A DNA stretch of 32,000 nucleotides from Telmatocola sphagniphila (GCF_018398935.1 NZ_CP074694.1:150001-182000), one strand, 5' to 3'. Numbered from the stretch's first letter, positions 8,237 to 27,956 are shown. Numbers and translations: made by a program. Notes: generated by a model not told the origin, from the letters alone.

Positions 8237-8680
8237 ATGAAAGAACTGACAATCCGAGAATCGATTCACATTCAAGCCCCGGCTGCCAAAGTCTGGGATG
8301 TGCTTACTCAGCCGGAGTACACCCGCCAGTACATGTTCGGCTGCGCGGCGGTCACCGACTGGAAGGTGGGTAGTCCGCTCGATTGGAAAGGGACTTATGA
8401 AGGCAAAGAGATGACCTTCGTTTCCGGTAAGATTCTGTCGATGGAACCGGGTTACGCTTTGGTCTACACGACGTTCGATCCGAATGTGAATTACAAAGAT
8501 CTGCCGGAGAATTATATGCGAGTCACCTATCGTTTAACGCCTAAGGATCACGGCGTTATGTTGGAGGTTACACAAGGGGATTTCTCGAAGGTCGAGAACG
8601 CCGAGAAGCGTTACACGGAAACAGCCTCGGGCTGGCCGATGGTGCTGGAGAATGTTAAAGCGATCGCGGAAAAGGGGTGA
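8237..8680 (+). CDS. SRPBCC-superfamily (AHSA1/START-like) protein
   Basis: 147 aa. The N-terminal IHIQAPAAKVWDVLTQPEYTRQYMFG pattern and the overall size are typical of Aha1-like SRPBCC proteins. Confidence 0.7.
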   Translation: MKELTIRESIHIQAPAAKVWDVLTQPEYTRQYMFGCAAVTDWKVGSPLDWKGTYEGKEMTFVSGKILSMEPGYALVYTTFDPNVNYKDLPENYMRVTYRLTPKDHGVMLEVTQGDFSKVENAEKRYTETASGWPMVLENVKAIAEKG

Positions 8681-8925
8681 GGGAGACTGCCCCGCATCGG
8701 GGTGGCACTGACCAGTATCGGTAAGAAAAGGGCTATGCCAGCGAGCGAAGAACGGGAAGTGGTCCTCAGCTAAGTTTTACACACAGCGAAGTTCGAAAGC
8801 GCGAGATCAAGATTTGCTAGTTATTCATGGTCTTCCTGGAGATTGGGGAGGATACGAGCTGCCCGGGCGTGAATTTGTTTTGAGTTGAAAAGAGGTCCTT
8901 TGAAATTGAAAATCGAGGATTTCTC

Positions 8926-9238
8926 AATGGCACTGTCAGATAGACAGTGCGACCCAAGCCGTTACTGCACTATGACTTGCATTGATTGAGAAGATTTGCC
9001 AGTGCCATCTCGCCGATTCCAATTTCAGGGTGGAACTAGCTATATGCCAGTGCGTGGGAGAAAAAAGTGCCAGAGAATTGTCACCATCTCAGGCACAAAA
9101 TCGAGCCAGAAGAGCGATTTATCTCAAAATGGCACTGTCAGATAGTCAGTGCCACCCAAGTCTAAAAATAATAATGACTTGCGCCTATTAACAAGGGTTG
9201 CCAATGGCACTCGTCGCCACATTCAAAGCAGAATATGG
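8926..9238 (+). repeat. Composite hairpin-rich repeat block A: X (8926-9033), Y (9034-9125), X' (9126-9238)
   Basis: It is homologous to 12965-13047 plus 14971-15176. The Y cores at 9045-9106 and 14986-15047 match at 59 of 62 positions by eye. X begins with a palindrome (8930-8950, gcactgtc-agata-gacagtgc). The motif GCCAGTGCC or its complement GGCACTGGC recurs many times. Confidence 0.8.
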
Positions 9239-9257
9239 AAAAAACGGCCAATTTATA

Positions 9258-9287
9258 TTGACTTGATGGCCATTTATTCTGTATTAT
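9258..9287 (+). promoter_or_regulatory. Sigma70-like promoter of the five-gene cassette, overlapped by an operator-like direct repeat
   Basis: The -35 TTGACT (9258-9263) and -10 TATTAT (9282-9287) are separated by an 18-nt spacer. The direct repeats GGCCAATTTAT (9247-9257) and GGCCATTTAT (9268-9277) straddle the -35 box. A GGAGG Shine-Dalgarno (9295-9299) lies 7 nt before the ATG at 9307. Confidence 0.55.
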
Positions 9288-9306
9288 TTACTGGGGAGGT
9301 GAGCGA

Positions 9307-9522
9307 ATGGGCGATGCAAAGAAGACGATGACACTGAACTTAACAGAGGCCGAAATGCGGGTTTTAGATGACCTGGCCAAGAAAAAGGAGCTGACGAAGA
9401 CGGCCGTCATCCGGCAAGCCATCCGCCTCTACCAAATGATCGAGGTCAGGATGGCGGCTGGCGAGAAGGTCTTCTTCGAGGACGAGAAGGCCCAGAAGAA
9501 AGCGGAGCTTATGGTCCTATGA
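9307..9522 (+). CDS. Ribbon-helix-helix (CopG/Arc-like) DNA-binding protein, putative antitoxin or autoregulator
   Basis: 71 aa. A beta strand (KTMTLNLTEAEM) followed by two helices (RVLDDLAKKKELTKTAVIRQAIRLY) gives the classic RHH pattern. It has a good Shine-Dalgarno, and its stop overlaps the next start (ATGA at 9519-9522). Confidence 0.75.
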   Translation: MGDAKKTMTLNLTEAEMRVLDDLAKKKELTKTAVIRQAIRLYQMIEVRMAAGEKVFFEDEKAQKKAELMVL

Positions 9523-10148
9523 GCGCCATCCCCATCAAGATCGTCCGGCGTCAAGATAAGGCGCTGGTTGACGCCATTCTCCATACCGAGCTAACGCCGA
9601 AGGTGCTCGGCGATACGGAGAAGGAATGGGGACCAATTCGGCTCGCTGCTGCGAAGAAGCTTCACGCCGCGGGAAAGTTCCAGGGGATACCTCAACACTT
9701 CCATTGGGATTGGGACAGGAAGAGCGGGAAACTGAAGTTGCTTTCCTATCAGAGCCTCGGCATCGAGTGCGCCGGGAAATTCCAAGGCCTGCTCATGGTC
9801 GATCTTGCGGGCAGGGTGGCCAGAATCGATCCCGATGTGGGCAAGCCTCTCGTCTACATCGAGTACCTAGAGGCCGCGCCTTGGAATCTGTCCATGATGG
9901 TTGACACGCCGATGTACTGCGGTATTGGCCCGGTGCTCATGCAAGCGGCGGTGGAACTGAGTTGCGATCAGGGATTTCATGGGCGGCTTGGATTGCATGC
10001 CCTTCCCCAGTCAGAGGGCTTCTATCGAGACGATTACGAAATGCAATGCTGTGGACCTGATGCGTCCTTCGAGGACCTGCCGTACTACGAGATGACCCGC
10101 GTGATTGCGGCACGCTTTACGACAAACTCTAGCGGGGGTGCGGTATGA
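9519..10148 (+). CDS. GNAT-like acetyltransferase-fold protein, putative toxin or effector
   Basis: 209 aa. LVYIEYLEAAPWN, then YCGIGPVLMQAAVE (a GxG of motif-A type), then LPQSEGFYRDDYEM (motif B-like) resembles a GNAT core. It is longer than typical TacT/AtaT toxins. It is translationally coupled on both sides by ATGA overlaps. Confidence 0.5.
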   Translation: MSAIPIKIVRRQDKALVDAILHTELTPKVLGDTEKEWGPIRLAAAKKLHAAGKFQGIPQHFHWDWDRKSGKLKLLSYQSLGIECAGKFQGLLMVDLAGRVARIDPDVGKPLVYIEYLEAAPWNLSMMVDTPMYCGIGPVLMQAAVELSCDQGFHGRLGLHALPQSEGFYRDDYEMQCCGPDASFEDLPYYEMTRVIAARFTTNSSGGAV

Positions 10149-11113
10149 AAATGAACACTAACCCAGAATGGCTGCTCCGGATGGCGGAGAAGGAGGCGAA
10201 TCGGATCATCTCCGTAGGTGGCTTCGTTAACCGCGTGGAGATGAACGTAGGCGTGCAATCTATGCCGGCGATGACGCGGTCCGAATGGACAAAGATTTTT
10301 CCCGTCAGTGTCATGCGAAAACTGCGGTTCTCGCTGCCCGAAGGCGTTAGTGACGTGGAGGCACTTCTCCAATTCTTCGGTGTCGCGTCGCCTGACGCAT
10401 GGCGGTCAAAGTGGGGCGACTATGCCGTCGCCTTCCGTCAAACGCAAAAGTTCGACTTCCATCGCGAAGCTCTTACCGCATGGGTACGAGAAGCAGAGAT
10501 CATCGCTGGCCAGATTCCTCTCGCGGATTTCGATGAGGAAAAGCTTCGAGGATCGCTGGATGAGTTCCGGCGGCTAACTCGTGAGGACACTCAGGTCGGT
10601 CTCGACAGGGCACAGTTGCTTTGTGCTAAAGCCGGGGTGGCGCTTGTCCTCGTTCCAGAATTGCCCGGCACGAGAATCAGTGGGTGTGCCCGGTGGCTGA
10701 ATGATCGTCACGCCATGATCGGCCTGACCGTCCGGTACAAATGGGCCGATCAGCTGTGGTTCACCTTCTACCACGAAGTGGCCCACGTCCTGTTGCATCG
10801 TCGCCGTTTGTTCGTGATAGATAATGCGGCCGATCATATGGGCGACGCCGTGGTCGATCCGGTGATGGCGAAGTACGAGGAGGAGGCGGACCGATTCGCG
10901 GGAGACTTGCTTATCCCGCCCGTTGCGCTTGCCGAGTTCCTCAGTCGCCACGGTGAGACGCTGACGAGCGAAGAGATTCACGCCTTCGCGGACTCTATCG
11001 AGATCGGTCCAGGCATGGTGGTCGGCCGCCTTCAGCACGATGAGATTCTGAAACATTGGCAGGGGAATATGCTCAGGCAAAAGCTTGGGTGGGATTTTGT
11101 CACCGAGGACTAA
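10145..11113 (+). CDS. ImmA/IrrE-family (COG2856, DUF955) zinc metallopeptidase with an N-terminal HigA-like region
   Basis: 322 aa. The HExxH motif HEVAH (nt 10772-10786) sits in the context WFTFYHEVAHVLLH, with a downstream EEEADRFAGDLLIP block typical of this family. The N-terminal LLQFFGVASPDAW resembles the end of an Xre/HigA HTH domain. Confidence 0.75.
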   Translation: MKMNTNPEWLLRMAEKEANRIISVGGFVNRVEMNVGVQSMPAMTRSEWTKIFPVSVMRKLRFSLPEGVSDVEALLQFFGVASPDAWRSKWGDYAVAFRQTQKFDFHREALTAWVREAEIIAGQIPLADFDEEKLRGSLDEFRRLTREDTQVGLDRAQLLCAKAGVALVLVPELPGTRISGCARWLNDRHAMIGLTVRYKWADQLWFTFYHEVAHVLLHRRRLFVIDNAADHMGDAVVDPVMAKYEEEADRFAGDLLIPPVALAEFLSRHGETLTSEEIHAFADSIEIGPGMVVGRLQHDEILKHWQGNMLRQKLGWDFVTED

Positions 11114-11117
11114 CGAC

Positions 11118-11759
11118 ATGATCGGCAAGATTTTCGTCACTAGCAGCGGCTACGATCCGGGCAAAGGCAAGGATGTCAAGGACCCCTACCTGGGGCCGAA
11201 AGCCTCGTTGGGTGCGTGCCGACCTGATTTTCGAGAACAGCTTCAGAAGGATGACCACATCTTCGTCGTGTCCGGAAAGGTCCGGAACGTCGATCAGTTC
11301 GTGATCGGCGGCTTCGCGATCGAGGAGAAAATTACCGCGATGGAGGCGTATGAGCGCTTCCCAGAGCATCGGCTTGTACTGCTGCCGAACGGCCAGGTCA
11401 GCGGGAACGTGATCGTAACCGCCGACGGCAAACAGCACCCGCTCGATCACCACGACCAGTTCGAGCGGCGAATTCAAAACTATCTCGTCGGCACGAACAC
11501 AATTGCCCTCCTGACGCCAGAGGAGATGGAGGAGGGGCGACTCTGGACGCTGGATATTCTTCGTGATGTCTTCGGGATCAAGGGCAACTCGATCCGCGAG
11601 CTTATGGGCCGAAACCGCAACCTGTCTGAACGTCAGGTTCTGAAACTGCGAGATCATTTGGAACGGGTGAAGATCGCTGCAGGTAAGCCGATCGAGCCGG
11701 AGGAGATTGGCCGTGTTCTGAGAATTTCGACTCGCGATGCGATTCGCGTTAAAGCCTAA
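11118..11759 (+). CDS. Hypothetical protein of 213 aa, function unknown
   Basis: The start is taken at MIGKIFV, 4 nt after the previous stop. The N-terminal pattern GYDPGKGK..DPYLGPKASLGACRPDFRE..DDHIFVVSGK loosely recalls Nmad2 / PUA-like beta-barrel modules. I could not verify this. Confidence 0.6.
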   Translation: MIGKIFVTSSGYDPGKGKDVKDPYLGPKASLGACRPDFREQLQKDDHIFVVSGKVRNVDQFVIGGFAIEEKITAMEAYERFPEHRLVLLPNGQVSGNVIVTADGKQHPLDHHDQFERRIQNYLVGTNTIALLTPEEMEEGRLWTLDILRDVFGIKGNSIRELMGRNRNLSERQVLKLRDHLERVKIAAGKPIEPEEIGRVLRISTRDAIRVKA

Positions 11760-11770
11760 GGAGATTATTT

Positions 11771-12961
11771 ATGGTAGTACAAAGAAGTGGCAAAAGTAAG
11801 TCTCAATTCGTTAGGCAGAGAACGTTGTTCGCTCCTGAACTGCCCTCACATGCAGAAGTGTGCGGCCCGGATGTGCCATGTGACATTGCTCCCATCGAGA
11901 AACGGCGTGATGGCGGTACACGCTACTGGTGCCGAGCGCATCGGGCTGACGCCACCGAGAAGGGCGGCAAGCCGGCCAAAAAGTGCTGTGCAGCAGACAA
12001 AATTCCACTCCGGGAAGATGAGATAAAGATTCTCGAACTGGATAAATACTGCGGGGGCGTGGCTCTCTGGGGCGCTGTGCCGGCCGTCTATGACACGACG
12101 CGGCGACCGATGGATAGCGGGATTCACATCCACGCTCGACCCGAGTCGGGTTCAAAGAAGGAGTTGGATTTCACTTTCCGAGCTGTTCGACTCATGGGAA
12201 AGAAACTGCCCGTGGATGGAATCATCGTCAATGAAACCGACGCGATTTACTACATGGTCAGTTCTGTGTTCGGCTACTCAATGAGCTTCGTTTCTTGCAC
12301 TCATTGTAGCTGGCCTCACCTCGACAAGGATTGGTTCAGTGTGAATCCCCACCGCCGACATCTCTGCGCTGGCTGTGGGAAGCATTTTCATGACCGCGTG
12401 AGAGGGATCGGCAATCCGATCATCGGAGTGCGGGATGCCTGCGGAGCAGCCGATCATAAGGTTTCGCCAGCTCCTAAGAATTTCGAGATCAAGCAGTCAG
12501 ATTATCCTGGCGGCCTTCAAATCTGGGGCTCTAACCCAGCATTTCTATGGACGCAACCAAAGGACGAAGAAGAGGGTATTCACGTCCATGCATTTTTGAC
12601 TGATGACCAGGAAGATCCGACTGTGGATGACACATTCTCAGAGGTAATAATCGATGGCGTAGAGCTTGACCCTCACATGGTCCGCGTGCTGATGGCCCAA
12701 AATGTCCTTCCATCGCTGAAGGGGCGAGTTAGGTCGATGGACTGCCCGCATTGTGGCCAACCTGGATTTGATGCAGGCGAAGCAGCCTTCGTACCAGGCC
12801 CGACTCATATTTGCCCAGAGTGCGGCCGTCAATTCCCCACAGTTGGCAGGACCAGGAACGTCGTGGTAAATCCCCTTCCAAAGATATTGGATGACCTTGC
12901 TCGGTCTGCCCCGCGGCCGCCTCAACAGCATCAGCTCGATCTGCTTCCCGAAACTCTTTAG
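11771..12961 (+). CDS. Hypothetical protein of 396 aa with a tandemly duplicated module, each copy ending in a CxxC...CxxC zinc ribbon
   Basis: An AAGGAG Shine-Dalgarno (11758-11763) lies 7 nt before the ATG. The internal repeat has a period of 152 aa. GG..WG at aa 95 and 247, GIH[IV]HA at 117 and 269, the paired CxxC motifs at 176/199 and 325/348, and NP[IL] at 215 and 367 are all in register. Confidence 0.7.
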   Translation: MVVQRSGKSKSQFVRQRTLFAPELPSHAEVCGPDVPCDIAPIEKRRDGGTRYWCRAHRADATEKGGKPAKKCCAADKIPLREDEIKILELDKYCGGVALWGAVPAVYDTTRRPMDSGIHIHARPESGSKKELDFTFRAVRLMGKKLPVDGIIVNETDAIYYMVSSVFGYSMSFVSCTHCSWPHLDKDWFSVNPHRRHLCAGCGKHFHDRVRGIGNPIIGVRDACGAADHKVSPAPKNFEIKQSDYPGGLQIWGSNPAFLWTQPKDEEEGIHVHAFLTDDQEDPTVDDTFSEVIIDGVELDPHMVRVLMAQNVLPSLKGRVRSMDCPHCGQPGFDAGEAAFVPGPTHICPECGRQFPTVGRTRNVVVNPLPKILDDLARSAPRPPQQHQLDLLPETL

Positions 12962-12964
12962 ATC

Positions 12965-13047
12965 GAGAACGGTGGGTGGCACTGGTTACTTGCTGTTTTT
13001 TTTATTGATCTTTGCGAATTGTAGGACTCAATCCTCGTCCAATTTCC
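12965..13047 (+). repeat. Divergent X-type repeat, the left part of composite repeat block B
   Basis: It shares ggcactgg, attgat and the terminal tccaatttc with the X unit of block A (8926-9033). It continues into Y at 14971 once the intron is removed. Confidence 0.6.
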
Positions 13048-13087
13048 GTATAGGGCTAGGAGGAGTATTGGGCTCCCCCTTCCCTCC

Positions 13088-13120
13088 AAACCGGACGGGC
13101 GGATCTCCCGCATCCGGCTT
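13088..13120 (-). ncRNA. Group II intron catalytic domain V
   Basis: The minus strand reads AAGCCGGAUGCGGGAGAUCCGCCCGUCCGGUUU. It has the AGC triad, a two-part helix with a 3'-side bulge, and a GAGA-containing apical loop. It lies 15 nt after the RT stop codon. Confidence 0.85.
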
Positions 13121-13134
13121 TCCGGTCAGTAGTC

Positions 13135-14502
13135 TTACCCCTTGAGGGATTGAGATTCCAGACGATGTGCCTGTTCCAGGGAGAACAGCCCCGCCTCGGC
13201 AAAGTAAGCTTTAGGCCACTTGAAGTTGTCCATCTTTCGGCTTCGACAATCGTGACCCAGACGACGACGCAGTATGCACCGCAGCCGCATTCGAGTCCAT
13301 TTATCCACGTCCCGAAAGATCCTCTTTTTGCTGTGCTTGAAGTATCCGTACCAGCCTCGTAGCGTTACGCTCACGTCGCGGACGATCTGCGACAGGCTAT
13401 CGCCTCTTTTCCGCTTCGTTTTCGCGCGAATCGCATCCCGAAGTTTCTCCAGACTTCGCTTCCGAGGATATATCAGACGTTGTCCTTTATAAACTCCAAA
13501 GCAATAGCCTAGAAATTCGAAACTCTCGATCTGCGTGTCCACCACTCTCGTCTTTTCCGGATGCAGTTGTAGCTTGGCCGATTCGCACCAGCGGCTCAAC
13601 GTCGCCAGGGCTTCTTCCGCTTCCGCTCGACTGCGGCAGACGATCATCATGTCATCCGCGTATCGCACCATCCGAAAACCTAGGGATTCCATCAATTGGT
13701 CCAAAGGATCCAGATACACGTTACTCAACAACGGACTCAAAACTGCCCCTTGCGGGGCTCCCGATTCCGGTTCCCAACTCCCCATCGACGAGAATATCTC
13801 GGCTTTAAGGAATTGCTCCACCAGAGCCAACAGCGTGCCGTCCGCGACCTTTCGCTTCAATAAATCCATTAATTGATCGTGATTGATCGCGTCGAAGTAG
13901 CCTTTAATGTCGACATCCACCAGATGCGTGTAACCTTCCCGCAAGAGTTCATTCACCTCTCGCAAGGCATCCTTGCAGCCTCGACCCGGACGAAAGCCGT
14001 AACTGCCCGAGGCGAAATCCTTCTCGAAGATCGGCTCCAACACCTGGCGAACCGCGCCTTGAACCACTCGATCTCGAACCGTTGGGATACCCAGAGGACG
14101 GCCTTCTTCACTCCCCGGCTTCGGGATCACCGTTCGCCGGATTGCCGAAGGACGGTAGGTGCCGTCCCGTAAAGTTCGTCCCAGGGCTTCCAGGTTCTCG
14201 TCCAAATGATTGGCAAACGCTTCGACACTCACATGATCCACGCCCGCTGAGCCCCCATTCGCCACGACTTTCGCCGATGACGACTTCAGGTTACTCTTCT
14301 TGCACACCTTGTCCATCAAGCTAAACCAGACGCCTCCTTTAACGCCCTCTTCGAGCGCGCTCAACATCCGATCGGTCCATACCGCAGGTTCCGTCCACGA
14401 CCATTGCTCTCGGACCCTACTAACGGTACCCGAGAGTGGGTCGGTTTCTTCTCCGCCTTGTTTAGCCACTGGCACTGACGGCGGTTTCTCTTTCCTGCCC
14501 AT
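13135..14502 (-). CDS. Group II intron reverse transcriptase/maturase
   Basis: It has an RT domain with YADD (RYADDMMIV) and a maturase X-domain (LRGWYGYF), and no C-terminal HNH/En domain. The start is taken at MGRKEK (14502). The longer ORF to 14730 would leave only 240 nt for intron domains I-III. Confidence 0.9.
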   Translation of the reverse strand: MGRKEKPPSVPVAKQGGEETDPLSGTVSRVREQWSWTEPAVWTDRMLSALEEGVKGGVWFSLMDKVCKKSNLKSSSAKVVANGGSAGVDHVSVEAFANHLDENLEALGRTLRDGTYRPSAIRRTVIPKPGSEEGRPLGIPTVRDRVVQGAVRQVLEPIFEKDFASGSYGFRPGRGCKDALREVNELLREGYTHLVDVDIKGYFDAINHDQLMDLLKRKVADGTLLALVEQFLKAEIFSSMGSWEPESGAPQGAVLSPLLSNVYLDPLDQLMESLGFRMVRYADDMMIVCRSRAEAEEALATLSRWCESAKLQLHPEKTRVVDTQIESFEFLGYCFGVYKGQRLIYPRKRSLEKLRDAIRAKTKRKRGDSLSQIVRDVSVTLRGWYGYFKHSKKRIFRDVDKWTRMRLRCILRRRLGHDCRSRKMDNFKWPKAYFAEAGLFSLEQAHRLESQSLKG

Positions 14503-14970
14503 AAACTCCTCGAAATCCACCTTCCTACGTCCCTTCGCTCCGTCGGCATTACCCGATTTCCACGCTACTATGGACGCTCTGACTTCCGACGCACAAGGCA
14601 ATCGCCTTCCCCGGTGCCTCGGATATCCCCGCTTACATTCGATACCTTTCGCACTCCTTCCGCCTCCAACCACATCGGATACCTCCCTCGACTCGCTTGG
14701 GGCTTTATCTCGGGATAATGCCGTCACCATAAGTTCTCCAACTGCTGGCGGACCTCTCGGTCAGTCCGGCTTTGCTAGCTTCGCCCTTAGCCACGCAGGC
14801 TCGCCGGTATCCGCTGCCGAAACGAGTTCACTTTATTGCGGACGAGATGCTCCCCTCGGGTTGCTCCCCACCCCGCCTCACGGCGACGCAGTTACCTTCG
14901 GGTACAAAAGGCCAAGCCTCCTTTCGACAGGGAATCTCACCCTGCTAGTATCGAATAGTCACGGGCGCAC

Positions 14971-15176
14971 GTGGCACTGGCTAACTGCCAGTGCGTGGGA
15001 GAAAAAAGTGCCAGAGAATTATCACCCTCTCAGGCACAAATTCGAGCAGAACGAACGCTTTATTGCAGAAACGCACTCGCAGATGGCCAGTGCCACTCAA
15101 ACCGTTACTGGATAACGACATGCGCTGATTAAGAATGCTTGCCAGTGCCACCCGCCGTCAATTCTCTAGGGTGAGG
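14971..15176 (+). repeat. Right part of composite repeat block B: Y (14971-15062) and X (15063-15176)
   Basis: Y matches 9045-9106 at 59 of 62 positions. It begins with a perfect 8-bp hairpin (14974-14994, gcactggc-taact-gccagtgc). X aligns along its length with 8926-9033 and ends in agggtgagg, which serves as the Shine-Dalgarno for the ORF at 15184. Confidence 0.8.
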
Positions 15177-15183
15177 TGCTACA

Positions 15184-15423
15184 ATGCGATTATGCCCTTG
15201 TTGCGAAGAATATGGTGATCTGTGGGATGTCATATTTACGAATCTTGGCGATCGACGAGCCGTTATGTGCTTCGAGTGCGACTCGGTATGGGATGCTGAG
15301 TATGAAGAACCCACGACTGAATTTACTGATTACGAAACGCTGATGAAAAAAAATGGAGTTGCACCAGACTGGAAGTGTATAGTCAAAGTACGTTGTGTCG
15401 GCACCGGGAAACCTAATACCTAA
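15184..15423 (+). CDS. Small Cys-rich (CPCC...CFEC) zinc-ribbon-like protein, function unknown
   Basis: 79-aa ORF with a GAGG Shine-Dalgarno about 7 nt upstream. Two CxxC-type pairs are present. It lies in an AT-richer segment. Confidence 0.5.
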   Translation: MRLCPCCEEYGDLWDVIFTNLGDRRAVMCFECDSVWDAEYEEPTTEFTDYETLMKKNGVAPDWKCIVKVRCVGTGKPNT

Positions 15424-15556
15424 AGGAACTTGAACAATTGAAATCGATCTTTCTGGCGAAGATGTAAAGATAATCTGTTATGCAATCACATGGAGCCTTT
15501 TCCCACCCTTCTTGCGAAGCTCATCACTAAAGTATTCAGAAGTAGAGCGGCAGAGA

Positions 15557-15811
15557 ATGGAAGCAATTTTCGATGCGCTAAGTAGCTATCTACATGACGC
15601 CGCGGACATCTTTGAAGTCTCGATCAGTAATATCAGATTGATCGCGGGAGATAATGTATTGGCAGACAGTAAAAATGACATTTTGCACATTGTTTTGTGT
15701 TTGCAATCGTTCCAGATCGAAATCGGACATTCGCCAAATGAGGTTTTGGCAATTACTGGTTTGCCTATCGTACGTCTTCAGTCTCTAGGTGAGCGACTCT
15801 CGAAGCTATAA
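15557..15811 (+). CDS. Hypothetical small protein (weak call)
   Basis: The ORF is open from 15512 (TTG), and the first ATG is at 15557. I recognised no motif. It lies in an AT-richer accessory segment. Confidence 0.3.
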   Translation: MEAIFDALSSYLHDAADIFEVSISNIRLIAGDNVLADSKNDILHIVLCLQSFQIEIGHSPNEVLAITGLPIVRLQSLGERLSKL

Positions 15812-16237
15812 AGAGGCGTGTGCGGCGGGTGACCCTGGTAACCCTTTATAATCACCGTAAGTAACTGTCAGGTAATGTTTTGAGTGACACTGACTACTCG
15901 CCCATGCAGTTTTGAATTAGTCCCTTTTTCAAAACGAGTAACCTATTTTCAAAGCCCTGGTTATTCGATTCACGGCATCTCGTAGCCTCTCCAAAACGCA
16001 CCTTGTTGCTCACCTCCCTCTCGTTTACGCTACTGGGTGCGGGGATTGGGATTCAATCCTAGGTTCCATAAGCCTGCCAATCAGGAATGGTGGCTTGCTC
16101 GTCACCGAGCTTGTTACCTTCTAGGAGCGAGCAGCTCTCAAGGACTATCAACTTTACCCCTCAGGAGGTCATCAAAACGAATCAAAATATGTTTATACGA
16201 GAATATGAAAACATGCGTATTTCCCAAGAAATAACCG

Positions 16238-16291
16238 AAGGTCATCAAAATCGCGTTTTCCACTATATGAAAAATGATGATCTGATGACCT
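16238..16291. repeat. 54-bp palindrome-ended repeat, copy 1
   Basis: It matches 25945-25998 at 49 of 54 positions by eye. The termini aaggtcatca and tgatgacctt are reverse complements of each other. A partial extra left arm (aggtcatcaaaacg) lies at about 16166-16180. Confidence 0.75.
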
Positions 16292-16404
16292 TTCCTGGTA
16301 AAACTTTACGGTTCTTCCGTTTTTAGGCGCAACTCTCGGCGAATCGGTCATTTTGGGATAGATTGCAATTTAGAGTACCCTTTACCTGGATCACGGAAGA
16401 GCCG

Positions 16405-17211
16405 ATGACGACGACTACCATTGCCATAGACATGGACGTCCCTGCCGGAGTGAGCGTTGGCGAATACGAACGCGTCGACGGTGGCCACGCCTTTCACGTG
16501 AGTTGGGAGTTGCCCGACAATCTTTGTTGCGAGACTTGCCAGCGAGAGTCTCGGCTTCAATTGGTGGAGAAGAACAAGTTTCTGAGCATCCGCGATCTGG
16601 ATTTGTGGGGTAAGCCGAGCTTTTTCGTGTACCAGGAGGTGTATCACCGCTGCCCGTCGTGCGGTCACCGTCAATCGCTGTTGCCGCCGTTCAAGCGTCG
16701 GGATGTGAAATATACGTTTCGCTTCGAGGAGCAGGTGCTGGTCAGTCTGATCGGGAGCACAGCCGAAGACGTGGCGGTGCGTTTGGGGATTGCCGCGGAG
16801 ACGGTGGAGCGAATCGTCAAGAACCGGATAGAGGACGCCAAGGCGAAGCAGATCGATCCCCAGCGGAAGATCGAGCGTTTGGGTCTGGATGAGATCAGCC
16901 TGCGTAAGGGGCATAAGGGATATGCGACAATATTGACGGACCTGACGAATGGGGAGCGTCCGGAGATTCTGGCTCTGTCCAAGGGTCGCGACGAAGCAGC
17001 GGGGCGAGCGTGTTTGGAGCGTTTGTCGGCCCAGCAACGGTCGGCGGTGCGTTGGCATCATACGGACATGAGCGCGGCGTATTTGAAGGCTTGCGGCGTG
17101 CATTTACCCAACAGCCAGTCGGTGATAGATCGCTTTCACGTCGCCAAGAAATTGGGTGAGGTGGCGGACGATCTGCGAAAAAAAACTATCGAGCCTACAA
17201 GCGAAGTTTGA
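16405..17211 (+). CDS. ISL3-family transposase, N-terminal part (frame 0, ends after the A8 run)
   Basis: It has the zinc-finger-like pairs CCETCQRE and CPSCGH, and DRFHVAKKLGEVADDLRKK is typical of ISL3 transposases. The ORF is open from 16363, and the first ATG is at 16405. Confidence 0.8.
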   Translation: MTTTTIAIDMDVPAGVSVGEYERVDGGHAFHVSWELPDNLCCETCQRESRLQLVEKNKFLSIRDLDLWGKPSFFVYQEVYHRCPSCGHRQSLLPPFKRRDVKYTFRFEEQVLVSLIGSTAEDVAVRLGIAAETVERIVKNRIEDAKAKQIDPQRKIERLGLDEISLRKGHKGYATILTDLTNGERPEILALSKGRDEAAGRACLERLSAQQRSAVRWHHTDMSAAYLKACGVHLPNSQSVIDRFHVAKKLGEVADDLRKKTIEPTSEV

Positions 17212-17720
17212 GCGGGGAAGCCCGCAAGAAGCTGCGTTCTCAGATGCACGACTTCCGGCGTCGTCCCGAGGATTTGAATCCGGAGCAGGTCCAGGCCCTC
17301 GAGGATTTGTTCGAGAAGGTGCCTTCGTTGGGAACGATCTACCATCTGCGTTGGGAGGCGACCAAGATCTTCGATAGTGCCCCGAACCGAGCCGAAGCCT
17401 CGCGACTGTTGGAAGATTGGATCGTCCAGGCCCGCGAGACCGAGATGGATTGGGAGCCGTTCATCACGATGCTCAAGAATAACTGGGAGGGGATCTTAGC
17501 CTACTTCGAGGAACGCAAAAGCAGCGGCCCGGTGGAAGGTCTCAATACCAAGATTCGGGTAGTGCTACGTCGGAGTTATGGAATTCAGAGTCTAACTACG
17601 CTCTGGACGAGAATACTCCTGGACGTGAATTGGGCTGCGAAAAAATTAGGGCCGACCGTTGCGGAGATTCGCGGCTTCGTCAACCAGATCCAGAAGTATT
17701 TCTCTGAATGCTACACCTAG
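17208..17720 (+). CDS. ISL3-family transposase, C-terminal part (-1 frame, no ATG of its own)
   Basis: Read from the A-run, the -1 frame gives KKNYRAYKRSLSGEARKKLRSQ..., continuous with ISL3 transposase architecture. It contains the NTKIRVVLRRSYG motif expected near the C-terminus. Confidence 0.8.
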   Translation: MSGEARKKLRSQMHDFRRRPEDLNPEQVQALEDLFEKVPSLGTIYHLRWEATKIFDSAPNRAEASRLLEDWIVQARETEMDWEPFITMLKNNWEGILAYFEERKSSGPVEGLNTKIRVVLRRSYGIQSLTTLWTRILLDVNWAAKKLGPTVAEIRGFVNQIQKYFSECYT

Positions 17721-17865
17721 AAACGGAAGAGCCAACTTTACGAAATGACGTTAAAATGTATGGTTTTACCGTTCAAAAACTTGCAAGCCTGCTTGGATTT
17801 GGACTTTTTTGGCGAGTTGTGGCAAAAATCGCTGCATCTCGAGTCTCGTTCAGAAATCTTCGATC

Positions 17866-18152: not shown

Positions 18153-18225
18153 TGACCCTACCGGGATTCGAACCCGGGTCGCAGCCTTGAAAGGGCTGTG
18201 TCCTAGACCACTAGACGATAGGGCC
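18153..18225 (-). tRNA. tRNA-Glu (anticodon UUC)
   Basis: I folded a 73-nt cloverleaf by hand. The acceptor stem is GGCCCUA/UAGGGUC with one G-U pair. The D arm is GUCU-AGUGGUCUA-GGAC. The anticodon stem is CAGCC/GGCUG with loop CUUUCAA. The T arm is CCGGG-UUCGAAU-CCCGG. The CCA end is not encoded. Confidence 0.9.
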
Positions 18226-25944: not shown

Positions 25945-25998
25945 AAGGTCATCAAAATCGCATTTCCTACTATCTAAAAAATGATGATCTGATGACCT
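25945..25998. repeat. 54-bp palindrome-ended repeat, copy 2
   Basis: It matches 16238-16291 at 49 of 54 positions. It lies about 180 bp upstream of the 26181 start codon. Confidence 0.75.
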
Positions 25999-26180
25999 CT
26001 CTAGGGGAACGACTGACACCTCAAGATTAAAAATAGATGAAATCCATCGCGGGAGAGGTAAGGGGCTATAAATTCCCGATGCGACTTTTCGAGCGAGTTC
26101 AAAAAGGGTAATGGACAAATCCCCCGTCAACTGCCAAAATGCTCGTAATCGTAATACAAGGCTCCTGCGGAGAATTTCCA

Positions 26181-27056
26181 ATGAAATGGCGTATCGGCAT
26201 GCTCTGCCTGGCCGCGTTCGGTTTCCTCGGCCTGGCCACCGCACAAGATCCCAAGAAAACGGAACAAGCAAAGAAAGATGCTCCGAAAACCGAGCAGAAA
26301 ACCGAAGCCGGTAAAGAAGCCAAAATCAAAGTGTTGGTCTCGCCCGATGCTTCAGTGGAATTGCGAATCGATGGCCAATTAACCCGCTCCACCGGGGATG
26401 TCCGCGAGTTCGTCACCCCGAAACTCGATCCCACCAAAAAATATTCCTACAAGTTCTCTGCTCTCATCGAACCCAATAATTACACCAAAATTACTCGCAA
26501 TCGGGAAATTGAATTCAAAGCGGGCGACGATGTCCTGGTCGATCTGCGCACGAAACTTCCGACCGATGAGGAAGATGTCAAAATCCGTTGGGTCCCCACT
26601 CCAGATGATATCTGCGAAGAAATGGCCAAGCTTGCCAAGATCGGCAAAGACGATGTGGTTTACGATTTAGGCTGTGGCGATGCCATCACCATCCGTACGG
26701 CCGTCAAGAAATTCGGGGCTAAGAAGGGCATAGGTGTCGATATCGATCCCGATCGCATCAAGGATGCCAAGAAAGCGGCCAAGGACGACGGTATCGCCGA
26801 TAAGATCGAAATCCGCGAAGGGGATATTCTGAAGCTCAAGCCGCTCGACGATGCCAACGTGGTGATGATCTACATGTCCGATTACATGATGGATCAACTG
26901 CAGCCGCTGTTTGAAAAGCTCAAACCCGGCAGCCGGATAGTCTCGCATCGATTCGTCATGGCGAAATGGAAAGCGGATAAATCAATCACCGTCACCGGTA
27001 AGGACGGCGATGAATACAATCTCCACCTGTGGATCGTTCCCGAAAAGAAAAAATAA
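26181..27056 (+). CDS. Exported TIGR03000-like domain fused to a class I SAM-dependent methyltransferase (paralogue 1)
   Basis: The signal peptide is MKWRIGMLCLAAFGFLGLATAQDP. The TIGR03000-like segment reads KIKVLVSPDASVELRIDGQLTRSTGDVREFVTP..KKYSYKF. The MTase part has VPTPDD...VVYDLGCGDA (motif I) and later IEIREGDIL. Confidence 0.75.
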   Translation: MKWRIGMLCLAAFGFLGLATAQDPKKTEQAKKDAPKTEQKTEAGKEAKIKVLVSPDASVELRIDGQLTRSTGDVREFVTPKLDPTKKYSYKFSALIEPNNYTKITRNREIEFKAGDDVLVDLRTKLPTDEEDVKIRWVPTPDDICEEMAKLAKIGKDDVVYDLGCGDAITIRTAVKKFGAKKGIGVDIDPDRIKDAKKAAKDDGIADKIEIREGDILKLKPLDDANVVMIYMSDYMMDQLQPLFEKLKPGSRIVSHRFVMAKWKADKSITVTGKDGDEYNLHLWIVPEKKK

Positions 27057-27098: not shown

Positions 27099-27956
27099 AT
27101 GAGTCGGTACGTCGCATTACTGGTCTTCCCACTGGTGTTTTTATGTTCTTCCGGGATCTCGGCGCAGGATAAAAAGGCTCCACCCTCACCGCCCGATCCG
27201 CCGACCAAGGCGGAAATGAAGGTCAGCAAGATCCAGGTGATCGTGCCGCCGAACGCCGATGTGGAACTGAGTATCGACGGAAAGAAACTTCGCACCACCG
27301 GTGACGTTCGCGAATTTAAAACTCCCGCTCTGGAAGCCGGCAAAAAATACGAGTATCTGATCGAAGCATTGATCGTTCCCAACAACTACACCAAGATCCG
27401 CCGTCCCCGGAAGGTCACTTTCAAAGCTGGCGAAGATCTGACCATCGACATGACCAAGGAAGATAAAGCGGTCGACAAGATCGAGGTTCGCTGGGTTCCC
27501 ACGCCGGACGATATCGTCGATGAGATGGCCAAGATCGCCAAAGTGACTAAAGACGACGTGGTATACGATCTCGGCTGTGGCGACGGCATCATGTTGATCC
27601 GATCGGTTAAGGTGATGGGGGCAAAGCGAGGTGTCGGCATCGAACTGAAGGAAGATATTGTCAAGCAGGCTAAGGAACGCGTCGAAAAGGAAGGCTTGAA
27701 GGATAAGATCGAAATTCGCCAGGGCGATATTCTGGATGTGAAAGACATGTCGGACGCCAGCGTGGTGATGCTATACATCGGTGATGATTTGGGAGCTCGA
27801 TTGGAGCCGGTGCTCCGTAAGACCCTGAAGCCCGGAGCCCGTGTTGTCTCCCACCGCTTTCTGTTAGGCGGCTGGAAACCCGATAAGACCGTTACCGTTC
27901 AGGGCAAAGACGGCGATGAATATACGATTCATCTCTGGGAAGTGCCGGCCAAGTAG
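27099..27956 (+). CDS. Exported TIGR03000-like domain fused to a class I SAM-dependent methyltransferase (paralogue 2)
   Basis: It has the same architecture as 26181-27056 and is roughly 60 percent identical by eye. The signal peptide is MSRYVALLVFPLVFLCSSGISAQD, and motif I reads VVYDLGCGDG. Confidence 0.75.
   Translation: MSRYVALLVFPLVFLCSSGISAQDKKAPPSPPDPPTKAEMKVSKIQVIVPPNADVELSIDGKKLRTTGDVREFKTPALEAGKKYEYLIEALIVPNNYTKIRRPRKVTFKAGEDLTIDMTKEDKAVDKIEVRWVPTPDDIVDEMAKIAKVTKDDVVYDLGCGDGIMLIRSVKVMGAKRGVGIELKEDIVKQAKERVEKEGLKDKIEIRQGDILDVKDMSDASVVMLYIGDDLGARLEPVLRKTLKPGARVVSHRFLLGGWKPDKTVTVQGKDGDEYTIHLWEVPAK

Follow-up and report, generated by a model that had tools for sequence, protein, structure and literature searches.

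Palindromic mosaic repeats around a five-gene operon of Telmatocola sphagniphila: a probable REP-like family with hairpins to which a lineage of group IIC introns homes

In the genome of the planctomycete Telmatocola sphagniphila, a five-gene operon lies between two copies of a hairpin-rich composite repeat, termed blocks A and B, and the locus raises the question of whether these blocks define a mobile gene cassette. The stretch of DNA analysed, hereafter the window, comprises 32,000 nt (GCF_018398935.1, NZ_CP074694.1:150001-182000); positions are counted from its first nucleotide and features lie on the plus strand unless stated otherwise. An earlier note on this DNA had likened the layout to cassette arrays, and had proposed that the palindromic motif of the repeat could be a recombination site or a dispersed element resembling repetitive extragenic palindromic (REP) sequences. 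The blocks are best explained, with a probability of roughly 0.6, as lineage-specific mosaic palindromic intergenic repeats of T. sphagniphila (Gemmataceae), similar to REPs, to REP doublets forming hairpins (REPINs), and to bacterial interspersed mosaic elements (BIMEs); they are also the homing site of a lineage of group IIC introns.

Block A (8908-9238) consists of the repeat unit X1 (8908-9029), followed by Y_A (9030-9106) and X2 (9097-9238). Block B is split by an intron (12959-13049 joined to 14971-15176) and consists of W (12959-13049), Y_B (14971-15047), and X3 (15038-15176). About 300 nt can be aligned between the two blocks once the intron is taken out, and nhmmer profiles of X and Y matched both with E values of 1e-27 to 1e-32. 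The X units were delineated by repeat search, with nhmmer E values of 3.8e-32 for X1, 2.4e-29 for X2, and 1.2e-30 for X3. The order X-Y-X formerly read in both blocks stands as far as this homology goes, with the correction that the left unit of block B is W, a truncated variant of X. W was recognized by alignment and recurs at positions 250-335 of a metagenome contig, L010. It is made of a motif arm (GGTGGGTGGCACTGG), a run of eight T, and a linker ending with TCCAATTTCCGT; the right half of its head hairpin is lost.

X1, which has a short leader, contains a head hairpin (8929-8951) and a tail motif GCCAGTGCCA (8998-9007) before the linker into Y. X2 has a long leader and a head hairpin at 9131-9153, and its tail (9199-9212) is decayed. 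In X3, the head hairpin (15072-15094) is weakened and the tail motif GCCAGTGCCAC (15141-15151) lies within the right outer arm of the block (15142-15158). Y_A contains hairpin 1 (9032-9054), then GTGGGAGAAAAAA, then hairpin 2 (9067-9096); the corresponding hairpins of Y_B are at 14973-14995 and 15008-15037. A fifth unit of the X type, X5 (15805-15939, minus strand), is a decayed inverted copy found by nhmmer (E value 1.1e-13) and alignment, which abuts the stop codon of the second of two small genes following block B. The window thus holds five X-type units within 7 kb, on both strands. A lone motif remnant, GGGTGGCACTGACCAGTAT (8698-8716), is similar to W in its left arm (GGTGGGTGGCACTGGTTAC, position 12971) and is found 18 nt downstream of the stop codon of an AHSA1-like gene (8237-8680).

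Conservation between the blocks is uneven. The Y cores (9045-9106 and 14986-15047) are identical at 59 of 62 positions (95%), the same count being obtained on re-alignment as in the earlier note. All three differences had been placed in or next to the loop of a stem. Two, at 9080 and 9086, do fall in the 12-nt loop of the hairpin 9067-9096; the last one, at 9100, is not next to the loop but 4 nt 3' of the stem. The X units were correctly described as alignable and more diverged: pairwise identity is 72-74% in the repeat search (8919-9007, 9121-9209, and 15062-15150), with about 73% between X2 and X3, and X1 and W can barely be aligned. The same search gave a 130-nt Y-X stretch at 82% identity. 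The limits of the gene set between the blocks were also recovered: a promoter-like site is at 9258-9287, the first ATG is found at 9307, and the final stop codon (12959-12961) overlaps the start of block B.

A single palindromic motif, GTGGCACTGGC, underlies all units, together with its complement GCCAGTGCCAC. With at most one mismatch, there are 24 occurrences of GCCAGTGCC, where chance would give 6.5 ± 2.4. The basic unit is a hairpin of 8-9 bp, GGCACTGNC...GNCAGTGCC, with GTGG (or CCAC) left unpaired at one end. Such stems, closed by loops of 4-5 nt, are found in Y hairpin 1 and in the head hairpins of X. In the former the unpaired tag is GTGG, 5' of the stem, and in the latter it is CCAC, 3' of the stem; they are therefore one unit in opposite orientations. 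The loop-adjacent pair alternates between T-A and G-C among hairpins. Y hairpin 2 reads GTGCC-A-GAG...CTC-A-GGCAC and has a 12-nt loop. Over five copies of Y its stem is invariant and all substitutions are in the loop, where three positions vary.

Folded as DNA, eight of ten hairpins reach -6.8 to -12 kcal/mol, with z-scores of -3.8 to -6.6. The head hairpins of X1 and X2 have energies of -9.0 (z-score -5.5) and -8.4 kcal/mol, respectively. Hairpin 1 of Y_B has a perfect 8-bp stem (-10.2 kcal/mol); that of Y_A is decayed, with five or six of the 8-9 pairs left (-1.2 kcal/mol). Hairpin 2 reaches -7.3 kcal/mol in Y_A (z-score -3.8) and -6.8 kcal/mol in Y_B. When pairs were counted, 91.5% of cells were paired, against about 30% when partners were slid by one to three columns. 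The hairpins are further arranged in inverted pairs. In block B, two 26-nt arms (14971-14996 and 15071-15096), 88% complementary, are separated by a spacer of 74 nt, and this spacer between Y hairpin 1 and the next X head contains the second, invariant hairpin. An outer pair of 17-nt arms, formed in the predicted fold by ACGGTGGGTGGCACTGG (12969-12985) and 15142-15158, closes the entire block of about 290 nt. The whole-block folds have z-scores of -3.4 (block A) and -6.3 (block B). On the plus strand, W is followed by a run of T (T8); on the minus strand, such runs come after the X head hairpin (T4) and after Y hairpin 2, where T6 in the window compares to T4 in L010, so that units bearing such a run could possibly act in a terminator-like manner, judging by sequence.

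By its sequence features, the element that interrupts block B is a group IIC intron of 1921 nt (13050-14970, minus strand). It is matched by Rfam RF00029 with 46.6 bits (gathering score 40). The same intron is present in L010 and in a second metagenome contig, L012. Its open reading frame (ORF), from 14502 to 13135 or, in a 410-residue version, from 14367, encodes an intron-encoded protein with RVT_1 and GIIM domains only and without an endonuclease domain (TIGR04416, 378 bits for a cut-off of 300). The best matches in the PDB are the IIC reverse transcriptases GsI-IIC (6AR1, 239 bits) and 7UIM (217 bits), ahead of the IIB and IIA enzymes 6ME0 (147 bits) and LtrA (139 bits). The 410 residues are identical to QVL32482.1 of Telmatocola sphagniphila, and the same genome encodes three further variants of the protein, QVL31436.1, QVL30272.1, and QVL30339.1, in other copies of the intron. 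A candidate exon-binding site 1 (GUGGC) is at 14794-14790 in domain I. The intron boundaries proposed earlier were nearly right; the 3' end is at 13050 instead of 13048, which shortens the intron by 2 nt. This end coincides with that of the Rfam match over domains V and VI (13050-13122) and with the ...CCCTAT end of the copies in L010 and L012. It also leaves a 3-nt spacer between the flanking motifs (TTTC-CGT-GTGG), as in uninterrupted copies, which have AGG (block A) or CAG (L010) in its place.

A lineage of IIC introns homes to the hairpins of the repeat family. In four of four independent insertions, from three organisms or strains, the intron lies 3 nt (CAC) past the stem of a stable hairpin. 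In the window, this hairpin is the first one of Y_B, and the junction on the minus strand reads GCACTGGCAGTTAGCCAGTGC then CAC before the intron. An X head hairpin is occupied in L010/L011 (GGCACTGGCAATAGCCAGAGC, then CAC) and in L012 (GGCACTGTCAGATAGACAGTGC, then CAC), the rest of X continuing past the intron in the latter. The fourth insertion, in a contig from another organism (L013) with an intron-encoded protein 75% identical, is at a hairpin of the same type (CCACTGGCATATCCAGTGG, then CAC). None of the decayed hairpins is occupied. Insertion behind terminators or other inverted repeats is an established habit of IIC introns (PMC1702495; PMC4424553), and the association of group II introns and insertion sequences (ISs) with REPs is on record (PMC1525189). 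The intron resembles B.h.I1 and S.ma.I2 in its protein, with reverse transcriptase and X domains but no endonuclease domain, and in that it inserts a few nucleotides 3' of a stem-loop in DNA and has a very short match for exon binding (PMC1702495, PMC4424553). It differs from them in that the stem-loop is neither a terminator, as no T-run follows it on the intron strand, nor an attC site, but a unit of a dispersed repeat. The target specificities listed in a review number only three, namely homing sites, terminators, and attC sites, while PMC1702495 mentions 'other inverted repeats'.

In L010 (2382-2822) and L011 (2055-3399), the X unit stops at the intron, and the 3' exon runs antisense to a gene for an aldehyde dehydrogenase that is cut off after about 164 codons. 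The Pfam Aldedh alignment extends six residues (VALAIA) into the translated hairpin. Two origins are suggested by this: intron copies may have rearranged with one another, or the intron may have inserted within the gene, at a site resembling a hairpin. In L013 (ENA ERZ27315166), from a more GC-rich organism, GGCACTG/CAGTGCC hairpins are present around the related intron at 180-420 and 2330-2400. A sequence like the X tail, GTGCCACCCCGCCGG, is also near the intron, and the match to the X profile is not significant (E value 0.05). The GGCACTG/CAGTGCC motif may be older than the Telmatocola family.

Copies of the blocks exist elsewhere. In JGI metagenome contigs from a related strain (L010/L011 and L012), W-Y-X or Y-X is found at unrelated loci, so the search of relatives proposed earlier did yield copies, and the neighbouring genes there are unrelated ones (an Aldedh fragment and a DUF3309 gene). 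The block of L010 is a mosaic, its W being nearer to that of block B and parts of its Y-X nearer to block A. The Logan contigs of run SRR14506984, from short reads of the same strain, are identical in sequence to the window and end at 8934, 9070, 13002, and 15128, all four ends falling within the blocks. One of them, L001, departs from the window by only six differences, all within its first 45 nt (window 9070-9114), which represent a third Y-X variant, with a junction that combines the versions of blocks A and B. Most simply, this start is a chimeric contig end that derives from a third copy in the same genome. Contig breaks and the L001 variant are the behaviour expected of a multicopy repeat. 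With stable hairpins in alternating orientation, copies at unrelated loci, and assembly breaks in the blocks, the earlier suggestion of a dispersed REP-like element is supported. Other searches brought no further members. A degenerate X-hairpin pattern, with three matches in the window, gave two chance hits in unrelated phyla among genome contigs that did not include the source genome. A 20-mer of Y gave two chance hits in a coding region among metagenome contigs, and missed the related JGI copies as these differ at two of the 20 positions. Scans of viral contigs either had no hits or picked up generic hairpins in contigs of unrelated phages.

The units have much in common with the REPs and BIMEs of enterobacteria and the REPINs of Pseudomonas, which are short imperfect extragenic palindromes as well (PMC1525189, PMC3337134, PMC3733652). 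A stem of 5-13 bp, a loop of 2-20 nt, and a stable fold were taken as defining a REP hairpin, and the Telmatocola hairpins fall within this definition. Further features shared with this group are an unpaired tag of 4 nt at one end, alternating orientation, inverted dimers with a spacer (about 70 nt, against 74 nt here), mosaics with other conserved motifs, and targeting by mobile elements. The units are also extragenic and near gene ends: all those of the window sit between called genes, and W begins at a stop codon. Differences are that the Telmatocola spacer contains an invariant hairpin of its own and that the host is a planctomycete. The BOX elements of pneumococci (boxA-B-C) and the Correia elements of Neisseria are modular intergenic elements of 100-300 bp, strongly folded, with terminal inverted repeats, and able to act as terminators or promoters. 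The Telmatocola blocks are likewise composite, modular, and strongly folded, but have no sequence relationship to them and no visible target duplication, and their modules also occur singly, as X5 does.

As REP-like repeats, the units would fold as hairpins in single-stranded DNA or RNA. They would spread or persist as non-autonomous selfish DNA in intergenic positions beside gene ends, with probable side effects on transcript ends where T-runs are present. The IIC intron lineage homes to the same hairpins, 3 nt past the stem. The operon is presumed to be bracketed because, in an accessory, IS-rich region beside a tRNA-Glu gene, the elements occupy the gaps between genes; from this layout it does not follow that the blocks delimit a mobile cassette. 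Operon homologues are found without the repeats, and blocks are found elsewhere beside unrelated genes, indicating that repeat and operon are independent of each other. Several points weigh against this explanation. The window shows neither a REP-associated tyrosine transposase (RAYT) nor another dedicated transposase. The tag GTGG/CCAC is not the GTAG or CGTC of the two described REP super-families (PMC3733652), so that the family is REP-like but outside both. No copy was found in the 25 kb of the window outside 8.7-16 kb, and the family is thus perhaps clustered and not evenly dispersed. The earlier note had proposed folding and covariation as checks; most hairpins are stable as described, but covariation is limited to a single pair and is not significant (301 of 500 shuffles reach the same). 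Lastly, the uneven conservation of Y (95%) and X (72-74%) could mean that Y has a function of its own.

It is unlikely that the W/X-Y-X block is instead a miniature inverted-repeat transposable element (MITE) of about 290 bp with terminal inverted repeats, mobilized by a DDE transposase encoded elsewhere, two insertions of which flank the operon by chance. The 17-nt terminal inverted arms of block B, the order W-Y-X(head) retained in L010 at another locus, and the abundance of ISs in the region (IS66, ISL3) would fit such an element. Yet no target-site duplication is visible at the ends of block B (ATCGAGA on the left, CAATTCT on the right), and block A starts with a full X1 in place of W and has no matching terminal arms. 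X is also found alone (X5), the composition is a mosaic that differs from copy to copy, and the inverted repeats of ISL3 are unlike the block arms.

The possible function of Y could reside in a multicopy RNA or small-protein gene formed by Y, or Y with the X head, an explanation that is considered distinctly improbable. In one form, Y would be a small RNA ending at hairpin 2 and the minus-strand T-run; in the other, it would encode a Cys/His-rich peptide translated from GGGAG-N7-GTG. Besides the higher conservation of Y, the T6 that follows hairpin 2 on the minus strand is terminator-like, GGGAG-N7-GTG precedes an ORF that is open in five of five copies, and two of the three differences between blocks A and B are synonymous in another frame. 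However, Rfam gave no match down to E = 1, the T-run is reduced to T4 in L010, and the X body has no apparent conserved promoter. The frame with synonymous changes is interrupted by an in-frame TAG in L010 and L012, and the GTG-initiated ORF varies in length (25-35 residues), is frameshifted in L012, and has exclusively non-synonymous loop substitutions. Comparison of the six-frame translation of both blocks with 5.8 billion proteins returned no match. A coding role was rejected for both Y and X, in view of the TAG in L010 and L012, the frameshift in L012, and the proportion of synonymous differences between X1 and X3 (3 of 17). The X units at 8927-8989, 9129-9191, and 15070-15132 do share an open frame of 20 codons (MALSD.QC...) with a stop codon in the same column. 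It is probably a by-product of the palindrome, because purifying selection is not apparent from the same 3 of 17 synonymous changes.

By analogy with integrons, the blocks might be more than passive repeats, namely single-strand hairpins at which accessory operons of Gemmataceae recombine or insert and so build up into arrays, without IntI. An HUH or other recombinase would serve them, and the IIC intron lineage would help to join genes to blocks, as proposed for the IIC-attC introns in cassette formation; this scheme is very improbable. Also very improbable is a single event at the locus, either a target duplication or the integration by homologous recombination of a circular operon carrying one block. 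Direct repeats around a 3.7-kb accessory operon, with Y cores 95% identical, would be its outcome, but the divergence is very uneven along the blocks, further copies are present elsewhere (the L001 variant, L010, L012), and the block of L010 is a mosaic of A-like and B-like parts.

The least probable explanation is a true integron-like or other site-specific cassette system, in which block A, the operon, block B, the small genes, and X5 form an array. It is largely refuted. Integron attC sites are 57-141 bp long, about a third of the length of the blocks (about 300 bp). Like attC sites, the blocks are structured imperfect inverted repeats between accessory genes, with a IIC intron; attC sites are known targets of such introns (PMC4424553; PMC7923331). 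The layout is suggestive too, since three repeat units delimit two gene sets in 7 kb, block B begins where the last operon gene ends, at its stop codon, and the operon is accessory or defence-like in appearance. But inverted pairs of RYYYAAC (R'') and GTTRRRY (R') 50-150 bp apart are absent from both strands of 8600-16000, and no single match to either core in this segment falls in a block. No integrase, IntI included, or other recombinase domain was detected in the scanned ORFs of the window, which comprised all large ones. Cassettes mostly are single promoterless ORFs with one site at the end of each, whereas five genes are present here with a promoter-like site of their own, and X5 is inverted relative to the other units. 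The operon homologues of relatives (L008, L009) do not have the flanking repeats, and blocks elsewhere adjoin unrelated genes.

Among the alternatives, the DDE-mobilized MITE and an independent function of Y are the main ones left. The REP-like explanation describes a family of palindromic mosaic repeats in a planctomycete, a phylum in which such elements are barely described. All sampled insertions of the IIC intron lineage are in hairpins of the family, which makes it a clear case for the 'other inverted repeats' class of targets. The repeats explain the breaks of short-read assemblies around the operon. A repeat-gene-repeat layout by itself is poor proof of a cassette system, and dispersal of the repeat needs to be checked. 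No new mechanism is opened by the finding.

The operon (9258-12961) lies outside the repeat and follows the promoter-like site, which has 10 of 12 matches. It encodes a ribbon-helix-helix protein (9307-9522), a 209-residue protein (9519-10148), an M78/IrrE-like protein (10145-11113) matching PD-Lambda-2_B with an E value of 1.3e-28, a 224-residue protein (11085-11759), and a 396-residue protein (11771-12961). The last belongs to a large and tightly conserved family with over 1100 homologues, of which the 120 listed have identities of 57-84% and lengths of about 397 residues and stem for the most part from planctomycete-like contigs. The protein is internally duplicated, with a Cys/His zinc-ribbon-like motif after each half. 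Its AlphaFold2 model is confident, with a pLDDT of 82.6 and a pTM of 0.82, yet neither a Pfam hit nor a PDB fold match was obtained. The M78 (PD-Lambda-2_B-like) and 396-residue proteins may constitute an uncharacterised defence or regulatory module. Homologues of all five genes are present in an ENA contig (L008), where they are broken by IS insertions, and of three genes in Zavarzinella formosa (L009); no X, Y, or other flanking repeat was found in either.

Between X3 and X5, two small genes, called in Logan contig L007, encode proteins of 79 residues (15184-15423) and about 84-99 residues (15512/15557-15811), and neither had a family hit. Planctomycete-specific domains in the window are DUF1571 and BBP7. 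An IS66 element is at 154-1533, a frameshifted ISL3 at 16310-17733, and a tRNA-Glu(UUC) gene at 18153-18225 on the minus strand. The 3' end of this tRNA gene faces ISL3, the small genes, and the operon, and the region has the look of an accessory island; no direct repeat of the tRNA 3' end of at least 12 nt, as would mark an island border, was found in the window. A palindromic repeat unrelated to X and Y occurs at 16238-16294 and 25945-26001. It is 57 nt long and 89% identical between copies, with 25-nt arms and the core AAGGTCATCAAAA; one copy is directly outside the left inverted repeat of ISL3. Shorter matches, to GGTCATCAAAA, are at 16160, 22306, and 27214. Two adjacent paralogous genes for S-adenosylmethionine-dependent methyltransferases (26139-27056 and 27099-27956) share a stretch of 103 nt that is 78% identical.

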